Below are positions 21,235 to 30,944 of a stretch of 64,000 nucleotides of DNA, piece by piece. Made by a program: the position numbers and the translations under genes. The notes beneath the pieces are model-generated. The model was not told where the DNA came from, made no database searches, and saw only the letters and a program-made list of their open reading frames with translations. The stretch is from NCBI GenBank assembly GCA_963801165.1, contig CAWDDT010000009.1:64001-128000 (forward strand), written 5' to 3'. The stretch is from an uncultured bacterium (GTDB lineage: Bacteria; Actinomycetota; Acidimicrobiia; Spongiisociales; UBA5794). Position 1 is the first letter of the stretch; every line of letters starts with the position of its first letter.

Positions 21235-22161
21235 ATGTCGATGGGTTTTGCATCCGAGGCAACGGGCTGGCTCATAGACGGCGATGCCTCCATCAGCTGG
21301 CAAACGATGCAGGACCTGCTCAATCGGGCACCCGCGACGGTGGCACGGGAGCGGGCCCGGGTTGCGACCACCGGCTGGGGAAAGCGGCTGTTGGAGAAGC
21401 AGGACGCGGAAGGTACCTGGGCGCATGGCGTCTACGGCCCGAAGTGGATCTCCACCACATACACGCTCTTGCTGTTGCGCCGGCTCGGTATACCGCCCAA
21501 CAGCCTTGACGGCAGGCGAGGCTGCCGGGCGCTGTGGGACCGGATCATCGTCGACGGAGGGGTCACCTGGGCGAACACGGCGGTGATGCCCGATGTCTGT
21601 GTGACGGCAATGTTTCTCGCTCTCGACTACTACTTCGACAACCGCGACCCGCGCCGCGAGGAAGCGCTGGCCTGGATGCTCGATCAACAGCTTCCCGACG
21701 GGGGCTGGAACTGCTCGGCGAGACGCTCCGGGTCGAGCCACGGGTCCTTTCATACGACGATCTCCGTGCTCGAGGCCCTCGCCGAGATCGGCGATCCTGC
21801 CAGTGACACAGCGGCCGGGCGGGGCCGCGAGTTCTTTCTCGGTCACCGGATGTACCGCTCACACCGCACGGGCGAGGTGTCGCACCCGTCCTTCACCAAG
21901 CTGTCGTTCCCGCCGCGCTGGTACTACGACGTGCTGCGTGGTCTCGACTACTTTCGCCTGGTCGACGCCCCCTACGACGAGCGGCTCGACGACGCTCTCG
22001 AGCTCCTCGTCACCAAGCGACGCAAGGACGGTAAGTGGCCCGTGCAGAACAAGCACCAGGGCCGGGTGTGGTTCGACATGGAGACGGGGCGCGAGCCCAG
22101 CCGCTGGAACACGTTGCGGGCGCTCCGCGTGCTCGACCGCTATCAGCCGAGCGCCCGGTGA
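21235..22161 (+). CDS. Hypothetical protein, prenyltransferase/squalene-cyclase-like alpha/alpha toroid
   Basis: QW-like repeats 'QDAEGTW', 'QLPDGGWNC', 'RRKDGKW'; 'PSRWNTLRALRVL'. Confidence 0.72.
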   Translation: MSMGFASEATGWLIDGDASISWQTMQDLLNRAPATVARERARVATTGWGKRLLEKQDAEGTWAHGVYGPKWISTTYTLLLLRRLGIPPNSLDGRRGCRALWDRIIVDGGVTWANTAVMPDVCVTAMFLALDYYFDNRDPRREEALAWMLDQQLPDGGWNCSARRSGSSHGSFHTTISVLEALAEIGDPASDTAAGRGREFFLGHRMYRSHRTGEVSHPSFTKLSFPPRWYYDVLRGLDYFRLVDAPYDERLDDALELLVTKRRKDGKWPVQNKHQGRVWFDMETGREPSRWNTLRALRVLDRYQPSAR

Positions 22162-23921
22162 AGGAACGCCGCCATCTGGCCGCGGGTCACCGACTGTGTC
22201 GGGCAGAACCGGTCGTTGGCCGGCGGGTTGCAGCCCTTGGTGATCCCGGCGCCGGCCAGTAGCTCAATGCTCGTCTCGAAGACAGACCCGTTGTCGTCCA
22301 CGAATTGGGTACCGTCTGCGTCACCCGTGAGATCAAGCGCTCGCACCAGGAACGCCGCCATCTGGGCGCGGGTCACCGGGTCGGTGGGGCAGAAGTGGTC
22401 GTTGGCCGGCGGGTTGCAGCCTTTGGTGATCCCGTCCGCCGCCAGTGTGTTGATATTGGCGAAGTGGACCGAGGACCCCGTGTCGGTGAAGGGGTTGCTC
22501 GTCACCGCCGGCAGATCGAGTGCCCGAACCAGGAACGTGGCCATTTGTTCCCGGGTGACGACATCGTCCGGGCAGTACAGATCGTTGATCGGCGGGTTGC
22601 AGCCCTTGGTGATGCCCTGGTCGGCCAGCCAGCTGATGTCGTTCTCGAAGAGGTAGCCGGGCGGCACGTCCCGAAACCCGGAGGCGGGTAGATCATCTGT
22701 CGATCCGTACTCGTCAGCACCGATGTCGGCGGCTGCCCCGACCGGCCGATAGTTCCCATCGAAATCGTCGTCGACGAGCGTGACACCAGCGGCGGCGTCG
22801 ATGGCTCCGGTGGCCGCTGCGGTCAGGTGCAGATCGCCGCTCCCGAAAAACCAGCCGGCGGGCGCGTTGGTGACGTTGCCCTGGAGCGTCCCCGTGGCGC
22901 CGTCCCGCTGCCAGATCGGCCCATCGGTGAGATTGTTGGCGATCGTCGCCGTGGTCGATGAGAAGCGGTACTCGATGGTCCCCGACGGGAACGTGCCATT
23001 CTGGATGACCGTGTTGTGATAGATCGCGACGTCCCGTGCGTAGTTGACGGTGATGCCGATGTCGCCGGAGCCTTCCCGGTAGATCATGTTGTTGCGGATC
23101 TCACCGCCCTGGAAGTCATAGGTGCTCTCGCCGTCCCTGGAGTTGACGTCGGGCGCCGACAATCCGAGAGCGATGGACCGGTCGCACTCGATGAACAGGT
23201 TTCGTTCGACGACGGTGTTGATCGAGTTGCGCCACATCAGCACGGCCGGCCCGGCGAGCTGGCCCTCGGGAGCGCGAATGTTGCGGAACTCGTTGTCCCT
23301 GATGATCCACCCCGACCCGGCGAGCACGTCGACGCCGTTGGTGTAGTCGCTGCGAGCCCGGTCGGTGTACTCGAACAGAGAGCACTCGACGACGCCGTCG
23401 TCTGCATAGGGTCCCGGGTTGCCCGCCGTCGATCCCTTGACGAATTGCTCACCGGCGTCGACCAGGTGAAGGTTGTACAGATGCACTCCGTCGGCGTCAT
23501 CCTCCCCGTGGATCTGGATCAGGTGGTAGTAGGCGTCACGCAGCGTGAGGTCGGCGATCAGCACTTCCTTGGCGTCGTAGACCGCCATCACGTGTGGCAC
23601 GTTGCCGTAACTGGTGTTCGACATGCCCCGTCCGCGCAGGACGACCGCATCGCGGTTGCCGCTCGCCGAGCGGATTGTCACGTTGGATACGCCACGGATG
23701 TTGAGCGTGTTGGTCAGGTCGTAGGTGCCGTCTGCGATGAGGATGGTGGTGCCGGAGGTGAGGTTGTTCACCGCGTCCTGGAGATCGGCGGTGGTGGCGA
23801 CGGTCACCACGTTTCCCGTCGCCGATGACAGCGGGCCACACGCGGAAGCCGCCCCAGCTTGCGGCGAAGGGAAGGTGAAGAGGGCGGTGGCGACCAGGAT
23901 CAGTGGAAGGGATCGTTTCAT
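22143..23921 (-). CDS. Secreted right-handed beta-helix protein with three C-terminal SLH-like repeats
   Basis: Signal peptide, 'ILIADGTY', Asn-ladder repeats, 'DIGADEY', three 'GITKGCNPPxND.F/YCP..VTR.QMA.FL.RAL' units. Confidence 0.85.
   Translation of the reverse strand: MKRSLPLILVATALFTFPSPQAGAASACGPLSSATGNVVTVATTADLQDAVNNLTSGTTILIADGTYDLTNTLNIRGVSNVTIRSASGNRDAVVLRGRGMSNTSYGNVPHVMAVYDAKEVLIADLTLRDAYYHLIQIHGEDDADGVHLYNLHLVDAGEQFVKGSTAGNPGPYADDGVVECSLFEYTDRARSDYTNGVDVLAGSGWIIRDNEFRNIRAPEGQLAGPAVLMWRNSINTVVERNLFIECDRSIALGLSAPDVNSRDGESTYDFQGGEIRNNMIYREGSGDIGITVNYARDVAIYHNTVIQNGTFPSGTIEYRFSSTTATIANNLTDGPIWQRDGATGTLQGNVTNAPAGWFFGSGDLHLTAAATGAIDAAAGVTLVDDDFDGNYRPVGAAADIGADEYGSTDDLPASGFRDVPPGYLFENDISWLADQGITKGCNPPINDLYCPDDVVTREQMATFLVRALDLPAVTSNPFTDTGSSVHFANINTLAADGITKGCNPPANDHFCPTDPVTRAQMAAFLVRALDLTGDADGTQFVDDNGSVFETSIELLAGAGITKGCNPPANDRFCPTQSVTRGQMAAFLHRALG
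22146..22680 (-). repeat. Three ~185-bp in-frame SLH-like repeats
   Basis: GGCGGGTTGCAGCCYTTGGTGAT at 22222, 22408 and 22591. Confidence 0.85.
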
Positions 23922-24014
23922 AGGCACATTCTGGCTTGGCCGGGTTTCCTACCGGAATCCGACGGCGTGTCCCGGTGCGACGCTCTACGATCCGCTCCGG
24001 TCTGCGAGGAGCCA

Positions 24015-26069
24015 ATGCCCGATTACCCGGTGACACGACGAGACGAGACGGTCGACGACTACCACGGCATGGCGGTTGCCGACCCTTACCGATGGCTGGA
24101 GGCGACTGACTCCGCCGAGACGCTCGCCTGGGTGGATGCGCAAAACGAGGTCACGTTCGCTCATCTCGATGCCATCCCGCAGCGGTCCGCGTTGCGGCAC
24201 CGGTTCGAGCAACTGTGGAACTTCCCACGGGAGTCGACGCCGATGCGCCGGGGAGACTGGTATTTCTTCACCCGGAACGACGGTCTGCAACCTCAGCCGA
24301 TCCTCTATAAACGTCCAGCGGCCGGCGGTGATCCGGTCGTCGTGCTCGACCCCAACACCATGTCCGACGACGGTACCGTCGCCCTGATGACTCTGTCGTT
24401 CACCAGCGACGGTGGGCTGCTGGCATATACCGTTGCCGAGGCAGGCAGCGACTGGCAGGTAGCCCGGGTGCTCGATACCGAGACCGGGGAGCACCTCCCC
24501 GACGAGCTGCAACGCATCAAGTTCACGACCCTGGCGTGGACCCCGGATGGGGAGGCGTTCTACTACGCCCGGTTCCCGGAGCCCGGCGAGTTCCCCGGCG
24601 CCTCGCCGTCGACCAACCAGCGTGTCCACCTTCACCGGCTCAGCGACGACCAGACCGAGGACGAACTCGTATACGCCCGTCCGGACGAACCGGACTTCGG
24701 CTTTCAACCCATTGTCACGGATGACGGTCGGCTGCTGGTGCTTCATGTCTGGCACGGAACCGACACGCGTAACCGCCTCTACTACCGGGAGGAGGGCGAC
24801 GGCGGGGTGTTTGTCGAGCTTCTCGACGACTTCGATGCCAAGTATCAACTCATTGATCACGTCGACGGGTGGCTCTACCTCCTGACCGACAGGGACGCAC
24901 CGAGGGGCAAGGTCATCGCCATCCCGCTCGCCCGGCCCACCGTCGAGAATTGGCGTGAGATCGTTCCTGAGGGAAAGGACACCATGGAGTTCGCCGCCGT
25001 CGCCGGCGGGCGGCTCGTCACCTTCGTGCTGCGTGACGCCAGCCACGCGGTCTCGGTCTACAGCCTCAACGGGGAGCCTGTCGCATCGCTTGATCTCCCT
25101 GCACTCGGCAGCGTCACCGAGTTTGCCGGAAAGCCCGGCCACAACGAGTTCTTCATCAGCTTCGAGTCGTTTGTCCTTCCCCCAACTGTGCTCCGTTACG
25201 ACCTGGTCGGCGGTTCGCTCGCTGCGGTCGCCGGGGCCGATGCCAGGATCGATCCCGATCGGTATGTCACGAAGCGGATTTGGGCGAGGTCGGCAGACGG
25301 CACCCCCATCCCGATGTTCGTCAGCCACCGCACAGATGTTGTTCTCGACGGCACCAACCCGACCATTCTGTTCGGCTACGGCGGTTTCGATATCTCCATG
25401 ACCCCGATGTACGCCCCCGATCGGCTCGGGTTCGTCGAAGCAGGCGGCGTCTTCGCCCTGGCCAACCTCCGGGGCGGCGGCGAGTATGGCAGGAAATGGC
25501 ATGAAGCGGGCATGTTCGGCGCCAAGCAGAATGTCTTCGACGACTGTATCGCTGCCGCCGAGCACCTGATCGCTTCCGGCTATACGTCAAACGAGCATCT
25601 CGGCATCTACGGTCGATCCAACGGTGGCCTGCTGGTGACGGCGTGTCTGGTGCAGCGGCCCGATCTGTTCGGCGCCGCGGTGGCGATGGTGCCGGTCACC
25701 GACATGCTCCGCTATCACCGTTTCACTGCCGGCCGCTATTGGACGGCGGAATGGGGCAGTGCCGACGACGGTCCTATGCAATTTGAATACCTGCATGCCT
25801 ATTCGCCGTTGCACAACGTGACTCCGGCGACCTATCCGCCGACGCTGGTCACCACCGGTGACACCGACGACAGGGTGGTGCCGCTTCACGCCTACAAGTT
25901 CATTGCCACGCTCCAGGCCGCCGTCGGCGGCTCCGGACCGGCCCTGCTTCGTGTCGATCGGCGCGCCGGTCACGGTCTCGGCAAGCCCATCTCGAAGCTC
26001 ATAGACGAGGCAGCCGACATCTACGCGTTTTTCCTCCACCACCTGGCAAAGGCGCCGGGGGCTAGTTAG
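24015..26069 (+). CDS. Prolyl oligopeptidase (S9A)
   Basis: 'DPYRWLE', 'GYGGF', 'NLRGGGEYG', 'GRSNGGLL', 'DDRVVPLHAYKF', 'AGHG'. Confidence 0.95.
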   Translation: MPDYPVTRRDETVDDYHGMAVADPYRWLEATDSAETLAWVDAQNEVTFAHLDAIPQRSALRHRFEQLWNFPRESTPMRRGDWYFFTRNDGLQPQPILYKRPAAGGDPVVVLDPNTMSDDGTVALMTLSFTSDGGLLAYTVAEAGSDWQVARVLDTETGEHLPDELQRIKFTTLAWTPDGEAFYYARFPEPGEFPGASPSTNQRVHLHRLSDDQTEDELVYARPDEPDFGFQPIVTDDGRLLVLHVWHGTDTRNRLYYREEGDGGVFVELLDDFDAKYQLIDHVDGWLYLLTDRDAPRGKVIAIPLARPTVENWREIVPEGKDTMEFAAVAGGRLVTFVLRDASHAVSVYSLNGEPVASLDLPALGSVTEFAGKPGHNEFFISFESFVLPPTVLRYDLVGGSLAAVAGADARIDPDRYVTKRIWARSADGTPIPMFVSHRTDVVLDGTNPTILFGYGGFDISMTPMYAPDRLGFVEAGGVFALANLRGGGEYGRKWHEAGMFGAKQNVFDDCIAAAEHLIASGYTSNEHLGIYGRSNGGLLVTACLVQRPDLFGAAVAMVPVTDMLRYHRFTAGRYWTAEWGSADDGPMQFEYLHAYSPLHNVTPATYPPTLVTTGDTDDRVVPLHAYKFIATLQAAVGGSGPALLRVDRRAGHGLGKPISKLIDEAADIYAFFLHHLAKAPGAS

Positions 26070-26150
26070 CACGGAGCAGCGGAAGATGCCACCATATAGC
26101 CCCGGCCACCGGTTCAGCGGTGGCGAGTCCCTGTCGATGTGAGGGAGTAC

Positions 26151-27518
26151 ATGGCTCTGACCCGTGCCAATCAGTCGCGTGCCCTGTGGTGGACCATCGC
26201 CGGTGTTGTCGCCGTGGCTCTGCTTGCCCTGGGAGCGTTTCTGTTCGTCAACTCGTTCACGACGGGACGGGCGCTCGACAAGGCCGAGACGTTGCACCGG
26301 GCCGACCTCGCTCTTGCTGCTCAGGACGTGGCGATCAAGTCGATCGGGCAGCTCGTCCTCGTTTCCCAGGATGCCGCACTCCAGGTGGCGACCCCCGCCG
26401 ATGTCGAGGCCGCCGCAGGTGAGGCAGATCGAGCCGTTTCCGACCTTGGTGAGCGGTTCGAGGCCCTGGATTCCGGTCTGGTGGACAAGCTCACCCCCGC
26501 TTTCGACGCCTGGCAGGCGGCTGCCCTGGACGTGACCTCGGCGGCGTCGTCCGGCGTTCCGCAACAGGCAGCTGACGCGTTGACGGGATCCCTGGCGCAG
26601 GCTTCAGACCGCTTCGTCAACGAGCTCTCTATTGAGCGTGACTCCGCGGCTCAGGCTGTGTCTGACACCACCGATAGCGTGAGCTCTCTGACCCGCCTCG
26701 TTGGTTTTCTCACGCTTTTCCTCATTCCCCTGGTGGCGGTCTTCGTCTACTGGCTGATTGCCCGCCGCCAGCTCCGCGACGCTACGGCCCATCTCGATGC
26801 CCGCATTGAGGCAGAAAAGACGTTGGGCCGAGCCAAGGATCAGTTCATCGCCAACTTCTCGGAAGAGTTACGGACACCACTCACCTCGATCTACGGCTTC
26901 TCCGAGGTGCTTCTCGACAAGGGGTTCATCGACCCGCAGGCGGGTGATCTGGTCGGTCTGATCAACCAGGAGTCCGGCGAGCTGGCGCGTATGGTTGAAG
27001 ACCTGCTGGTGGCTGCCCACGATGAGAGCGCCCCGCTCCCAATCGGTCTCGAGACCCTCGACATGGATGAGCAGATCCGCGAAGTGATTGCGCCGTTCGA
27101 GAAGCGTGGGCGTGCCGTTGGTGGGACATGGGGTGGTGGTGCGGTGCGGGCCGACGCGCTCCGGGTAAGGCAGATCCTACGCAACCTCATCACCAACGCC
27201 ATCGAGCACGGTGGTCCCGACATCAGGATCTTCGGAGACGCGGCGGGCAGTAAGTATGTCGTGTCGGTGGAGGACAACGGGCCTGGTGTCCCCGAGGAGA
27301 TCGTCAATCAGTTGTTTGCCCGTTTTGTGAGCGGTGGGGAGCCTTTGACAACGGGAACACCCGGTCTGGGTCTTGCGGTGGCACGACTGCTGGCCCGGGC
27401 GATGGGTGGATCGCTCGAATATCAGCGAGTCGCCAACCGCACAGCGTTTGTCGTCTCCCTGCCGCTGGCGACGCAGGCCGACGACGATGCGGGCCCGGCT
27501 CCAGCGTCTGACCGATGA
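26151..27518 (+). CDS. Two-TM sensor histidine kinase-like protein with H-box His replaced by Glu (pseudokinase candidate)
   Basis: 'FIANFSEELRTPLTSIYG' versus canonical SHELRTPL; N box 'QILRNLITNA', G1 'EDNGPG', G2 'GTPGLGLAVAR'. Confidence 0.85.
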   Translation: MALTRANQSRALWWTIAGVVAVALLALGAFLFVNSFTTGRALDKAETLHRADLALAAQDVAIKSIGQLVLVSQDAALQVATPADVEAAAGEADRAVSDLGERFEALDSGLVDKLTPAFDAWQAAALDVTSAASSGVPQQAADALTGSLAQASDRFVNELSIERDSAAQAVSDTTDSVSSLTRLVGFLTLFLIPLVAVFVYWLIARRQLRDATAHLDARIEAEKTLGRAKDQFIANFSEELRTPLTSIYGFSEVLLDKGFIDPQAGDLVGLINQESGELARMVEDLLVAAHDESAPLPIGLETLDMDEQIREVIAPFEKRGRAVGGTWGGGAVRADALRVRQILRNLITNAIEHGGPDIRIFGDAAGSKYVVSVEDNGPGVPEEIVNQLFARFVSGGEPLTTGTPGLGLAVARLLARAMGGSLEYQRVANRTAFVVSLPLATQADDDAGPAPASDR

Positions 27519-29758
27519 TGGCCGGTCTTCGTCGTATCGCGACTGCCTTTGCCGCAGCAGCCCTTGTGGCTGCGTTGCCCGGTGCCGCGGTAGCCGATTT
27601 CGGCAACGGTCCCTCGCTCGAGCCCATTCCGGATCAGACCGTTGCCGAGCTGAGCCAGATGCGGGTGACGGTCGAAGCAAGCGACCCCGATCTACCCAAT
27701 GACGTGCTCCGCTTCTCTCTGGCCGGAGGCCCGCTCGGTGCAGTCATGGCGCCGGGCGGAACCATCACGTGGACCCCTTCGGAGGCCAACGGTCCTGGTA
27801 CGTATACGATCGTCGCCCGCGTGGCGGATGCGTCGGGGCAGACCGACCAGGAGTCCTTTCAGGTGACGGTCACCGAGGTGAACACCGCACCCAAAATCGG
27901 ATCCATTCCGGATCAGGCGCTCGGACCGGGCGACGAGCTCGAGCTTGAAATCCCGGTTACCGATGTCGACCAGCCGGCCAACTCGTTCACGTTCGCGGCA
28001 ACCGGGCTTCCCCCGGGAACGAGCATCGACAGCACTACGGGGAAGATCAGCGGGACTGTGTCGAGCGTTGGGGACGCCACCTCGGGTACCGCCGTTATCA
28101 CCGTGACCGACGACGGCAACCCTCCCGCCCGGGCGACGCGTTCCTTCTCGTGGTTGGTAACGGCCGGCAACCATGCTCCGACCATGCAGCCGCTCGGCGA
28201 GCAAACGGTTCTCGAGGACGGTGTGGTCCGGTTCACGGTTTCTGCCCTGGACGCCGACCCGGGTGACGCGCTCATCTACTGGCTGGCAGAGGGTGTCGAC
28301 CCGGTGCCGGCCGGCGCCACGATCGACGAGAAGGGTGGGGTGTTCACCTGGAAACCGACGCAGGACCAGTACGGGGCTACCTACCGGTTCAACGTGATCG
28401 TGTCGGATTCGGGGTCGCCGCGACTATCCGATACCCAGCTGATCACGGTCGTCCTTCCTGAGTACAACACGCCCCCCGAGATCGGCGCCGTTTCCGACCA
28501 GCATTCGGCCGAGGGCGACAGCGTGCTGGTGAGAGTGACCGCAACCGACGTGGAACGCAACGCCCTCACCTTTTCGGCGGCGGACCTCCCTGCAGGGCTC
28601 GAGATCGATCCGGCCACAGGCGTGATCAGCGGCGAAGTCGGATACGAGGCCGGGGCGCGATCGCCGTATAGCGTCGTAGTGACGGTCACCGATGATGGGC
28701 GGCCTGCGGCGTCCAGTCACGCTTCGTTCAGCTGGGCGATCGACGAGACCAACCGGCCGCCGGTGGTCACGCCGGTGACGGTGGCGGCGATGGTGGGGAG
28801 AACGACACCTATCGAACTCGACGTATCCGACCCCGATGGCGACCCGCTCACGTTCACGATCGTCGACCAGCCGAGCAACGGCAGGCTCAGCGGAGTGCCG
28901 CCCACACTGACCTACCTGAGCGATGGGGGCACGAGCGACGCGTTCACCTTCACCGTCACCGACGGTGAGTTCGAGGTTGAGGGGACCGTGCTGATCGAGA
29001 TCAGAGAGAGCAATGCTCCGCCGGAGCCGGGTGTCGACGAGTACCAGCTGACGAGCGGCGAGACGCTTCAGGTCGACGCCCCCGGGGTGTTGGGCAATGA
29101 CCACGATCCCGACAGCGAGCAGCTGACCGCGGTGCTGGTGGCCCGACCCGACCACGGTGAGCTGACCCTAAACGCCGACGGTTCTTTCACCTATACCCCC
29201 GAAGCCGGCTACGTCGGGGCCGACAAGTTCACCTATGCCGCCGTCGACGAGCTCGGGGAGGAGTCGACGGCAACCGTCGTCCTGACCGTGGTGGCCGCAC
29301 AGACACCGGGCGAGGTCGAGCCCCCGGCAGGATCGCGGGCGGCGGTCGTTGCCGCCACTGCGGCGGCGTGGCGGCCGCCGGCCGAGGAGGACGGGGCTTT
29401 GCTCCCGCGGGTTGGCCGCGCCGTGACCGACGCCTTTCACAGTGGCGTTGCCGCGATTCCGCAGATCGCCTATCCGTTGTTGTTGCTGATCGCAGCACTG
29501 GTGCTGGCACTCACCGTCGGCAAGGTTTCGCTGCTGCCGGTGGGCAACGGGCGCACCCAGGGTGAAGGGACGGTGGACTGGTACGACCCGGCCCGCGGTT
29601 TCGGCCGCATCTTGTCCGATGACCGCGGTGACGAGGTCTTCGTCCACGCCGGCTCGTTCGAGAAGGGGGAGACCCCGGTACCGGGCCAGCGGGTCGAGTT
29701 CATCGCCGCCACCATCCGCGACCGCAAGATGGCCCTCAAAGCCTGGCAGGCGTCTTGA
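27515..29758 (+). CDS. Secreted Ig/cadherin-repeat protein with TM helix and C-terminal cold-shock domain
   Basis: Signal peptide; about six NxxP-led Ig/cadherin-like repeats ('GLPPGTSIDSTTGKISG', 'GVLGNDHDPD', 'DGSFTYTP'); TM at ~29465-29520; CSD 'GTVDWYDPARGFGRI...EVFVHAGSF...GQRVEF'. Confidence 0.85.
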   Translation: MMAGLRRIATAFAAAALVAALPGAAVADFGNGPSLEPIPDQTVAELSQMRVTVEASDPDLPNDVLRFSLAGGPLGAVMAPGGTITWTPSEANGPGTYTIVARVADASGQTDQESFQVTVTEVNTAPKIGSIPDQALGPGDELELEIPVTDVDQPANSFTFAATGLPPGTSIDSTTGKISGTVSSVGDATSGTAVITVTDDGNPPARATRSFSWLVTAGNHAPTMQPLGEQTVLEDGVVRFTVSALDADPGDALIYWLAEGVDPVPAGATIDEKGGVFTWKPTQDQYGATYRFNVIVSDSGSPRLSDTQLITVVLPEYNTPPEIGAVSDQHSAEGDSVLVRVTATDVERNALTFSAADLPAGLEIDPATGVISGEVGYEAGARSPYSVVVTVTDDGRPAASSHASFSWAIDETNRPPVVTPVTVAAMVGRTTPIELDVSDPDGDPLTFTIVDQPSNGRLSGVPPTLTYLSDGGTSDAFTFTVTDGEFEVEGTVLIEIRESNAPPEPGVDEYQLTSGETLQVDAPGVLGNDHDPDSEQLTAVLVARPDHGELTLNADGSFTYTPEAGYVGADKFTYAAVDELGEESTATVVLTVVAAQTPGEVEPPAGSRAAVVAATAAAWRPPAEEDGALLPRVGRAVTDAFHSGVAAIPQIAYPLLLLIAALVLALTVGKVSLLPVGNGRTQGEGTVDWYDPARGFGRILSDDRGDEVFVHAGSFEKGETPVPGQRVEFIAATIRDRKMALKAWQAS

Positions 29759-30944
29759 CCATTCCCAGCTGGTGGACATCGATCCTCCCGGTGCGGAACC
29801 CGGCCTCGCAGTACGCCAGGTAGTAGCGCCACGTTCGCCGGAACCGCTCGTCGAGGCCCAGGCTGCGCAATGCCGGCCAGGAGTTTTCGAAGCGCTCCCG
29901 CCAGGTACGCAGCGTCCGTGCGTATGAGGCGGCGAACGAGTCGACAGACCTGACGGTCAAACCTCGCTCTCCGGCGAGGTCGCGCAGCTTTTCCACCGAT
30001 GGGAGGGCGCCACCCGGGAAGATGTGCTTGCTGATGAAGTCGTCGCGGCCGAGCAGTGAGTCGAAGAGCCGGTTGTCGATGGTGATGGCCTGCATGGCGA
30101 CCGCCCCGTTGGGGCGGAGCCGGGCCTGGATCTGGTCGAACAGCGTGGGCCAGAGATCTGCGGGAATCGACTCGATCATCTCGATTGTCACGATCTTGTC
30201 ATACAGCCCCGTCTCATCGCGGAAGTCCTGGAGCCTGATTTCTGTCCGGTCGGCGACACCGGCCCTGGCGAGCCGTTCCCTGGCGTAGGTCGCCTGCTCA
30301 CCGCTGAGAGTGAGCCCGGTCACCGACGCGCCCATCTCGGTGGCCGCGTATTCCGCGAAGCCTCCCCAGCCGCAGCCGATCTCGAGCACTCGGTCGCCCG
30401 GCCCAACCCCGGCGAGCTCGGCGAGACGCTGGTACTTGGTCAACTGCCCCTGGGTGAGATCGTCGTCTTCCGACCGGAACACCGCCGATGAGTACGTCAT
30501 AGTGGAGTCGAGCCAGGCGGTGTAGAAGTCGTTGCCGAGGTCGTAGTGGTCGCCGATGCTGGGGATCTCGGAACGGCGCCGTACCGTCAATCGTTGCCAT
30601 AGCCGGCGGGCGGCTGTGATGACACGGCCGGGATTGCGGTCCCTCACACGGGCGTCGAGGTTCCTCGCCATCGCTTCCAGGGTCGCTGCCAGGTCGGGGG
30701 TGTCCCACAGACCGGCCATGTAGGCCTCGGCGAACCCGACGCCGCCGCCTGTGGCGAGCCGCCACAAGAACCGTATCGGACGGTAGACGGTGACGCGCCC
30801 GCTTGGCCCCGGCTCGGCGCCATGTCCTACCAGGATGGCCGAGCCGGGTAGTTCGACGGTGATCTCGCCGACTCGAATCCGTCGTAGCAGCGCTCCGTAG
30901 CCGGCTCGCACCGGTTTCATCGTGATCGACGCAAAGACGCTCAC
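29736..30944 (-). CDS. Cyclopropane-fatty-acyl-phospholipid synthase family methyltransferase (UfaM/UfaA1-like)
   Basis: 'HYDLGNDFY', 'MTYSSA', 'LEIGCGWG', 'IFPGG', 'YYLAYCEAGF'; GTG start overlaps the DUF1365 stop. Confidence 0.92.
   Translation of the reverse strand: MSVFASITMKPVRAGYGALLRRIRVGEITVELPGSAILVGHGAEPGPSGRVTVYRPIRFLWRLATGGGVGFAEAYMAGLWDTPDLAATLEAMARNLDARVRDRNPGRVITAARRLWQRLTVRRRSEIPSIGDHYDLGNDFYTAWLDSTMTYSSAVFRSEDDDLTQGQLTKYQRLAELAGVGPGDRVLEIGCGWGGFAEYAATEMGASVTGLTLSGEQATYARERLARAGVADRTEIRLQDFRDETGLYDKIVTIEMIESIPADLWPTLFDQIQARLRPNGAVAMQAITIDNRLFDSLLGRDDFISKHIFPGGALPSVEKLRDLAGERGLTVRSVDSFAASYARTLRTWRERFENSWPALRSLGLDERFRRTWRYYLAYCEAGFRTGRIDVHQLGMVKTPARL

Follow-up and report, generated by a model that had tools for sequence, protein, structure and literature searches.

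Here, we describe a pair of overlapping genes in DNA from an uncultured bacterium (GTDB lineage Bacteria; Actinomycetota; Acidimicrobiia; Spongiisociales; UBA5794; GenBank assembly GCA_963801165.1). The pair lies in a stretch of 64,000 nucleotides, positions 64,001 to 128,000 of contig CAWDDT010000009.1, which we call the window and whose numbering we use unless another contig is named. Gene A (26151–27518) encodes a 455-residue membrane homologue of HisKA-type sensor kinases that lacks the phospho-acceptor histidine, that is, a histidine pseudokinase, and gene B (27515–29758) encodes a 747-residue type-I membrane protein with immunoglobulin (Ig)-like repeats outside the cell and a cold-shock domain (CSD) inside it, both assigned from their open reading frames (ORFs) and Pfam matches. 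Both genes and all features within them lie on the forward strand. An initial annotation, made from the sequence alone, had read the pair as an undescribed trans-envelope signalling system in which a nucleic-acid-binding CSD takes the place of a response regulator. We searched A and B in the genomes of 40 relatives, and a profile of the transmembrane (TM) helix and CSD tail of B, built from 15 tails, in 401 genomes of the class; genomes carry G-numbers, G000 being that of the window itself and the others those of relatives. These comparisons support A and B as a conserved, lineage-restricted functional unit, whose kinase appears to have lost its phospho-acceptor in one small clade.

Architecture of the two genes

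Gene A starts at an ATG (26151) three bases past a Shine–Dalgarno-like GAGGGAG (26141–26147) read from the sequence. Its product opens with a first TM segment, TM1 (residues 9–39, 26175–26267), which was found by hydropathy scan and is helical in the AlphaFold2 model, followed by an extracytoplasmic, all-helical sensor domain of four helices (residues 40–175, 26268–26675; predicted local distance difference test (pLDDT) 91–96 in the AlphaFold2 model) and by TM2 (residues 176–206, 26676–26768; hydropathy scan), a single helix that continues into the DHp domain. The modelled helices span positions 3–71, 77–99, 103–128 and 132–251 (model numbering; add 5 for the protein), such that TM1 runs into the first helix, two further helices follow and the fourth passes unbroken through TM2 into the first helix of the DHp domain. 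Whereas the mean pLDDT of the model is 77.6, it exceeds 90 in the outside domain, for which this secondary structure suggests a four-helix bundle. No Pfam family matches the sensor domain, no HAMP domain was found by Pfam, and Foldseek searches with the whole model returned kinase cores only (HK853, DivL and AdeS) and no named match for the sensor domain.

The cytoplasmic part of A consists of a DHp (HisKA) domain (26832–27017; PF00512, E = 4.3e-13, 49.5 bits against a cut-off of 26.9) and a HATPase_c (CA) domain (27153–27470; PF02518, E = 6.2e-22). The latter keeps its N, G1 and G2 boxes (NLITNAIEHGG, DNGPGV and GLGL), which align with those of His-bearing relatives, and A may bind ATP. Orthologues of A within the genus are 51–66% identical to it, and A reaches no equivalog cut-off of NCBIfam.

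The product of gene B, whose orthologues are 40–61% identical over their full length, begins with a predicted signal peptide (residues 1–27, 27515–27595) that ends in AAVA, the putative cleavage site, and a similar hydrophobic N-terminus is present in all partners of the kinase in the family. A hydropathy scan of B finds two hydrophobic segments, residues 8–30, at this signal peptide, and 643–677. Between them lies an extracellular Ig-like repeat region of about 570 residues (27611–29299), with Pfam matches to He_PIG (E = 5.5e-40, four stretches), Big_9 (E = 7.6e-44, four stretches), Cadherin_4 and Cadherin_5 and an NCBIfam match to the tandem-95 repeat. The second segment holds the single TM helix (residues 648–675, 29456–29539; AlphaFold2 helix and hydropathy scan), which carries the motif PLLLL..AL.L.LT.G[RK]. 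The frequency of the majority residue averages 0.62 in this helix (19 tails), compared with 0.52 in the CSD of the same protein and 0.64 in TM2 of the kinase; since a single-pass anchor is as conserved as TM2 of the kinase, this suggests a specific contact within the membrane. The two products are membrane proteins with an outside part and a cytoplasmic domain, as first proposed.

About ten residues from the membrane, B ends in a cytoplasmic CSD (residues 684–745, 29564–29749), recognized by Pfam (PF00313 at residues 684–738, 31.6 bits against a cut-off of 27, and 36.3 bits in the genome search), by phmmer against the PDB (best match a CspB, E = 9e-7) and by structure. When the last 110 residues of B are modelled with AlphaFold2, a long helix is followed by a five-stranded barrel (strands 43–54, 59–64, 70–74, 89–97 and 100–108 of the model; pLDDT 88–96), for which Foldseek returned Escherichia coli CspA and CspE and the CSDs of YB-1 and Lin28, with a TM-score on the target of 0.87 and a root-mean-square deviation of 1.7 Å for CspA. 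In turn, the 15-tail profile picks up ordinary cold-shock protein (Csp) ORFs of 65–80 residues across the class, with E values of about 1e-11. The tail of B is a true CSD homologue.

How much of the nucleic-acid-binding surface survives differs between species. At the KGFGF-type and VFVH-type motifs, the aromatic and basic motifs with which such domains bind nucleic acid, canonical Csps from this class have KGFGFI and VFVH. The CSD of G000 reads RGFGRI and VFVHA there and keeps the tryptophan of strand 1; it retains the first phenylalanine of the former motif and the phenylalanine and histidine of the latter, with arginine for the second phenylalanine and an alanine after VFVH. G014 resembles G000, and G263 and G131 are near-canonical, but most orthologues of the locus (group A, below) have lost the tryptophan and one or both phenylalanines (for example, HGLGM). 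Of the nucleic-acid-binding CSD in the initial annotation, the fold is real and the aromatic residues are kept in part in G000 and largely lost in many orthologues, which makes binding of nucleic acid possible for the CSD of G000 but apparently not a conserved property of the family.

Members from three families of the order keep this TM helix and tail, while the length of the ectodomain varies from 747 to about 2300 residues. When positions 27515–27700 are compared with L040:9027–9950 and with further orthologues, B of G000 and of G014 is roughly 270–440 residues shorter at its N-terminus than the others, which are open frames of 1014–1164 residues; about 200 residues at the start of the additional N-terminal part in G002 match no Pfam family. 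Apart from the tail of B, the better match, PF00313 finds in G000 only a degenerate 69-residue ORF outside the window (reverse strand, C10:115356–115541; L080:2336–2776) that has neither the tryptophan nor the FGF motif. This search showed no canonical small Csp in G000, although other families of the class have them.

Conservation of the pair

Genes A and B overlap by the four bases ATGA (27515–27518), shared between the stop codon of A (TGA, 27516–27518) and the start codon of B (ATG, 27515–27517). A four-nucleotide overlap (ATGA or GTGA) recurs in 12 of 16 pairs of the family, two others overlapping by 11 nucleotides and by 1 nucleotide and the last two being separated by gaps. At 19 of the 22 loci that encode a TM helix with a CSD tail, the kinase gene lies directly upstream on the same strand, and none of the 22 contradicts this arrangement: the locus in G004 is split over two contig ends in a manner that fits adjacency, and those in G034 (contig C31) and G139 are cut by contig ends.

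Genus-wide, the locus is part of a syntenic block of genes for an S9 peptidase, the kinase, the Ig–CSD protein, a DUF1365-like protein and an amine oxidase. The pair is also present in G018 and G020, of other genera, but its flanking genes are not. Different surroundings are likewise seen at the second copies that G002, G006 and G008 carry and at the members from two further families of the order (G263 and G034; G131). In a midpoint-rooted maximum likelihood tree of 27 kinases, in which the relevant forks have a support of 80–90, the orthologues of the locus (group A) form one clade (100/100), besides clades of kinases with a receiver gene (82/90), without one (90/96) and with a different partner tail (100/99). 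The clades of the kinase thus track the type of partner, a pattern that shows co-inheritance and, because kin share history, falls short of proof of co-evolution.

The functional link between A and B, which the initial annotation could base on gene coupling alone, is therefore much strengthened by this adjacency, by the recurring overlap, itself confirmed at the coordinates first given, and by the kinase tree. A survey of gene neighbourhoods for co-occurrence, the check it had suggested, finds the pairing conserved and no kinase of the family without an Ig partner.

Of the 401 genomes searched in the class, 8 have full-length matches to the tail, and each of these belongs to the order of the window itself; within the genus, most species have a match. 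The tail profile matches 24 of 1.84 billion cluster representatives at E ≤ 1e-30; the best 150 include about 35 with a single C-terminal TM helix and CSD tail (in proteins of up to 2108 residues), the rest being proteins with multiple CSDs. A word-based protein search with the tail returned six proteins, and the names given to close relatives at their source are 'VCBS repeat-containing protein', 'large repetitive protein' and 'cold shock CspA family protein'. A locus scan with B alone found two distant Ig-repeat matches, one in a metagenome-assembled genome and one in Nocardioides limicola, neither of which is a member of the family. DNA of the stretch itself is present in metagenomes from soil and salt marsh, and the sequencing runs listed as containing it include none of RNA.

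We infer a physical contact between A and B from these patterns; structure prediction for a complex of a kinase dimer with the TM helix and CSD tail gave scores of 0.01 and 0.00 against a mark of 0.32, which speak neither for nor against binding.

Loss of the phospho-acceptor histidine

The H-box of A is FIANFSEELRTPL (SEELRTP). In an alignment of 20 family kinases, A and 19 relatives, its Glu238 (codon GAA, 26862–26864) takes the position of the phospho-acceptor histidine, which is kept in 16 of the 20 (SHELRTP). Besides glutamate in G000, the exceptions are threonine in G014 and G005 (STELRAP, in which the threonine of the conserved LRTP motif is also replaced, by alanine) and arginine in G009. 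Genome-wide, 22 H-boxes were detected by motif scan, 21 with histidine and one, that of A, with glutamate. At the level of codons, the site is CAC in G002 and G008, GAA in G000, ACC or ACG in G014 and G005, and CGA in G009; two base substitutions separate the CAC of relatives from the GAA of G000. (One H-box and one row of the kinase tree come from an unpublished genome, G027, and no claim depends on it.) That A is a pseudokinase, as first proposed, is thus upheld: A is not phosphorylatable on the canonical histidine.

The rest of the kinase has fared differently from genome to genome. Whereas the DHp domain of G000 is 88% identical to that of the His-bearing orthologue in G002, the whole DHp domain of G009 is degenerate (20% identity to G000, compared with 49% in its CA domain). 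The N, G1 and G2 boxes are intact in all four His-less kinases.

Three of these kinases (G000, G014 and G009, the last on a long branch) are joined at 91/90 in the kinase tree, and all four His-less genomes at 97/94 in a tree of the neighbouring amine oxidase; a tree of the peptidase gene joins the four weakly (61/36). Because the His-less kinases group together in trees, the simplest reading is that the histidine was lost once and that the site drifted afterwards. Glu238 would then be the derived state of a small clade, and, because relatives carry threonine or arginine in its place, it was probably not selected as a mimic.

An assembly error behind Glu238 is unlikely, because both genes and their junction are also found, with 98.6% identity (52 differences) and no insertions or deletions, on an independent 8.6-kb contig that a different study obtained from a salt-marsh metagenome, and none of the differences listed (40 of 55 rows) falls in the Glu238 codon. 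Of these listed differences, 38 of 40 fall at 26965–27893, where the kinase gene ends and B begins, and two in the preceding 750 bases. Since synonymous sites are saturated between species at 51–66% protein identity, we gauged constraint from the identities per domain given above and from a comparison of G000 with this strain, in which 9 of the 18 changed codons of A are synonymous, about threefold over neutrality on small counts.

At its locus in G005 (L081, C4:216000–232000, in a 10-contig assembly), the genes for the kinase, the Ig–CSD protein and the peptidase are all in pieces. Because the neighbouring peptidase gene, of which 415 of 685 residues were recovered, is broken as well, these breaks are likely to be insertions or deletions of the assembly rather than three real pseudogenes.

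Receivers in the family

All 54 Response_reg matches of the genome fall outside the window; the closest, at C9:142015, is 14 kb past its end, and a partner encoded farther away may exist. No receiver was found within the 12–19 kb fetched around group-A orthologues. A stand-alone receiver is nevertheless encoded next to the pair elsewhere in the family: downstream of the Ig–CSD gene at the second copies of G002, G006 and G008, in G263 (two in tandem) and in G034, and upstream of the kinase in G131. These receivers have about 125–135 residues and motifs in common, and the two that were scanned match Response_reg only (Pfam). In G020, a NarL-type regulator is convergent to the pair. The best match in G000 to the receivers of the family (C10:52161–52514) was considered as a partner of the module and rejected, as its identity to them (36–43%) is ordinary receiver-to-receiver similarity and its neighbourhood is unrelated.

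CSD tail and receiver thus coexist in part of the family and, because a receiver adjoins the pair in one clade, the CSD is no general stand-in for a response regulator. The replacement proposed in the initial annotation agrees with this window, where a receiver and the histidine are both absent, but not with the design of the family, in which 16 of 20 kinases keep the histidine and one clade has receivers.

Interpretation and alternatives

We put slightly better than even chances on a two-component-type module in which B serves as a co-receptor or an accessory subunit and contacts the kinase, which in this clade is a pseudokinase. A and B would be made in fixed proportion, and B, as a 'third component', would touch the kinase within the membrane or at its surface. 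Signals would leave one clade of the family through the stand-alone receiver encoded next door. In the clade of G000, the histidine appears to have been lost once, the ATP-binding domain has been retained and the vicinity of the pair has no receiver. Here, A might still bind ATP and change shape without any His–Asp relay, as a partner of B whose conformation depends on the signal, and the CSD that B tethers to the membrane would be the last effector-like domain. Which way signals travel and what the CSD binds are, like the contact itself, inferred.

Several observations weigh against the co-receptor reading. Contact between A and B is itself a deduction, and within the genus their adjacency is partly plain synteny. 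Half of the codons changed between strains are non-synonymous, so that constraint within the species looks only moderate, on small counts, and in G009 the kinase (branch length 2.38) and its partner (0.98) evolve fast, which is also compatible with decay. His-bearing orthologues of group A likewise have no receiver nearby, and a missing neighbour therefore does not itself mean a missing relay. The midpoint-rooted tree, moreover, would fit the receiver-bearing arrangement as either the ancestral or a derived one.

A bolder possibility, the initial annotation taken literally, is a phosphorylation-independent trans-envelope pathway in which the tethered CSD is the designed output, binding RNA or single-stranded DNA at the membrane under the gating of a kinase-like protein. 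The fold found by Pfam, phmmer and Foldseek would suit it, as would the tryptophan, first phenylalanine and VFVH phenylalanine and histidine kept in G000, the near-canonical motifs of the distant G263 and G131, a kinase that lacks its histidine and has no receiver nearby, and the degeneracy of the only other CSD-like ORF of G000; receivers of the family, where present, have no output domain of their own and would need another effector. We nonetheless think this pathway unlikely, given that most aligned kinases keep the histidine, that a receiver adjoins the pair at six loci of the family, that the canonical aromatics are replaced in most group-A orthologues (HGLGM, without the tryptophan) and that three different residues at the H-site argue for lost constraint and not for selection of glutamate. 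Similarly, we see only a small chance that the tethered CSD is the true signalling output in the family as a whole, such that perception outside, by the Ig repeats of B and the helical sensor domain of A, would control binding of RNA or single-stranded DNA on the inner side of the membrane, through a receiver docked on the tail in relatives and, in this clade, through a pseudokinase and free of phosphorylation.

The variation of the H-site between glutamate, threonine and arginine raises the question of whether the module is instead losing its function in this clade, the loss of the histidine being a first step towards a pseudogene and the pair persisting by inertia. The alanine in the LRTP motif of G014 and G005, the degenerate DHp domain and long branch of G009, the broken genes of G005 and the share of non-synonymous changes between strains all point that way. 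Yet both ORFs are intact in G000, G014 and G009 and, without insertions or deletions, in the independent 98.6% identical strain; the four-nucleotide overlap is kept in G000 and G014; the DHp domain of G000 remains close to that of a His-bearing orthologue; ATP-binding motifs persist even in G009, where the CA domain has been far better preserved than the DHp domain; and the breaks in G005, with its equally fragmentary peptidase gene, may be assembly errors. We regard decay as improbable. The least probable explanation, in our view, is that A and B have no physical link and that B is an ordinary adhesin co-transcribed with or regulated by the kinase, with a CSD-like tail that serves anchoring or export. 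Its ectodomain has repeats of an adhesin type, the names of its relatives ('VCBS repeat-containing', 'large repetitive protein') agree with such a role, the aromatics of the CSD are degenerate in many orthologues, and the genes that follow related kinases often encode other secreted proteins, which are anchored at the C-terminus and differ widely in size. However, the conserved overlap exceeds what co-regulation needs, B keeps its TM helix and tail in three families while the ectodomain changes in length, and the phylogeny of the kinase tracks the type of tail of its partner.

Surroundings and related loci

The upstream peptidase gene ends 81 nucleotides before A. A scan for promoters and terminators (23500–30500) yielded a single promoter-like site, which lies on the opposite strand, and a weak terminator-like site within the peptidase gene. 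The 3′ end of B overlaps by 23 bases (29736–29758) that of a convergent ORF similar to cyclopropane-fatty-acid synthases (PF02353), and the scan found no terminator-like hairpin between the two. A gene on the reverse strand (22143–23927) encodes a secreted right-handed β-helix protein with three C-terminal SLH-like repeats; it is syntenic with the locus in four relatives, in three of which it is cut by the end of the fetched locus.

Outside the window, G000 encodes a paralogous kinase (C13:18000–38356, L025) that is 33% identical to A, keeps the histidine and is followed by several giant Ig-repeat genes. The last Ig-repeat protein has TM segments at about residues 780–820 and a cytoplasmic part of about 250 residues without a Pfam match, and C-terminal tails of this type are also present in G032 (C8, L030) and G039 (C21, L033). 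Such loci look like a second kind of module of a kinase and a single-pass Ig protein. At 12 further loci with kinases 31–37% identical to A, the product of the next gene often has a signal peptide, to which three loci add a C-terminal TM helix (L089, L093 and L097, with products of 367, 643 and 411 residues); at L100 and L102, the next product exceeds 1680 residues and runs off the contig. A receiver gene lies upstream on the same strand at two of these 12 loci and on the other strand at two.

Relation to known systems and significance

In three-component systems such as LiaFSR, HbpS–SenS–SenR, MtrAB–LpqB and QseG–QseE, an extra envelope protein, presumed to be a modulator, is likewise encoded in the operon of a kinase. 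What differs here is that the accessory protein is of type I and combines Ig repeats with a cytoplasmic CSD, an architecture that the literature searched did not show for any of those systems, and that the receiver is a stand-alone REC domain in relatives, while G000 has neither a nearby receiver nor the histidine; the locus fits a three-component system only through its relatives. By anatomy, A fits the histidine pseudokinases, in which, as described for DivL of Caulobacter (tyrosine for histidine), PsmA of Streptomyces venezuelae and a ChrS variant of Corynebacterium, the DHp and CA domains are kept and the histidine is replaced; with its histidine absent, A fails as a working HisKA kinase. 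Foldseek aligns the model of A with the C-terminal part of DivL (4q20) at a TM-score on the target of 0.73–0.75, but A is an envelope sensor with two TM helices and not a cytoplasmic PAS protein and, compared with the pseudokinases as described, its loss of the histidine appears recent and limited to one clade, with three residues found at the site.

Csps are free proteins of about 70 residues. The CSD of B has the fold of the CspA/CspB family (PF00313) but forms the C-terminus of a 747-residue membrane protein, and we found no membrane-anchored CSD coupled to a kinase in the literature searched, most subscription journals being outside its reach. Glutamate at the phospho-acceptor site is known from DesK H188E, a laboratory mutant whose complex with DesR has been proposed to represent the phosphotransfer state (PMC7005713); unlike A, DesK is a HisKA_3 kinase and its glutamate was engineered. 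The novelty claimed in the initial annotation thus holds for the pair, a conserved and undescribed module, and not for its kinds of component, accessory proteins of kinases and histidine pseudokinases being already known.

If B is merely an adhesin-like co-sensor of the kinase, the pair is a modest addition to three-component systems, from a poorly studied order known mostly from metagenomes. If its tail binds RNA or docks the stand-alone receiver, the module would represent a new output logic for bacterial transmembrane signalling. With a CSD as its signalling output, it would be a pathway that acts across the membrane at the post-transcriptional level, a kind for which bacteria have no described example. 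In addition, the kinases of the family form a natural series in which to ask what role is left to a histidine kinase beyond phosphorylation, from those with the histidine and a receiver, through those with the histidine and no receiver nearby, to His-less kinases with an intact DHp domain and, finally, to His-less kinases in which this domain has decayed.

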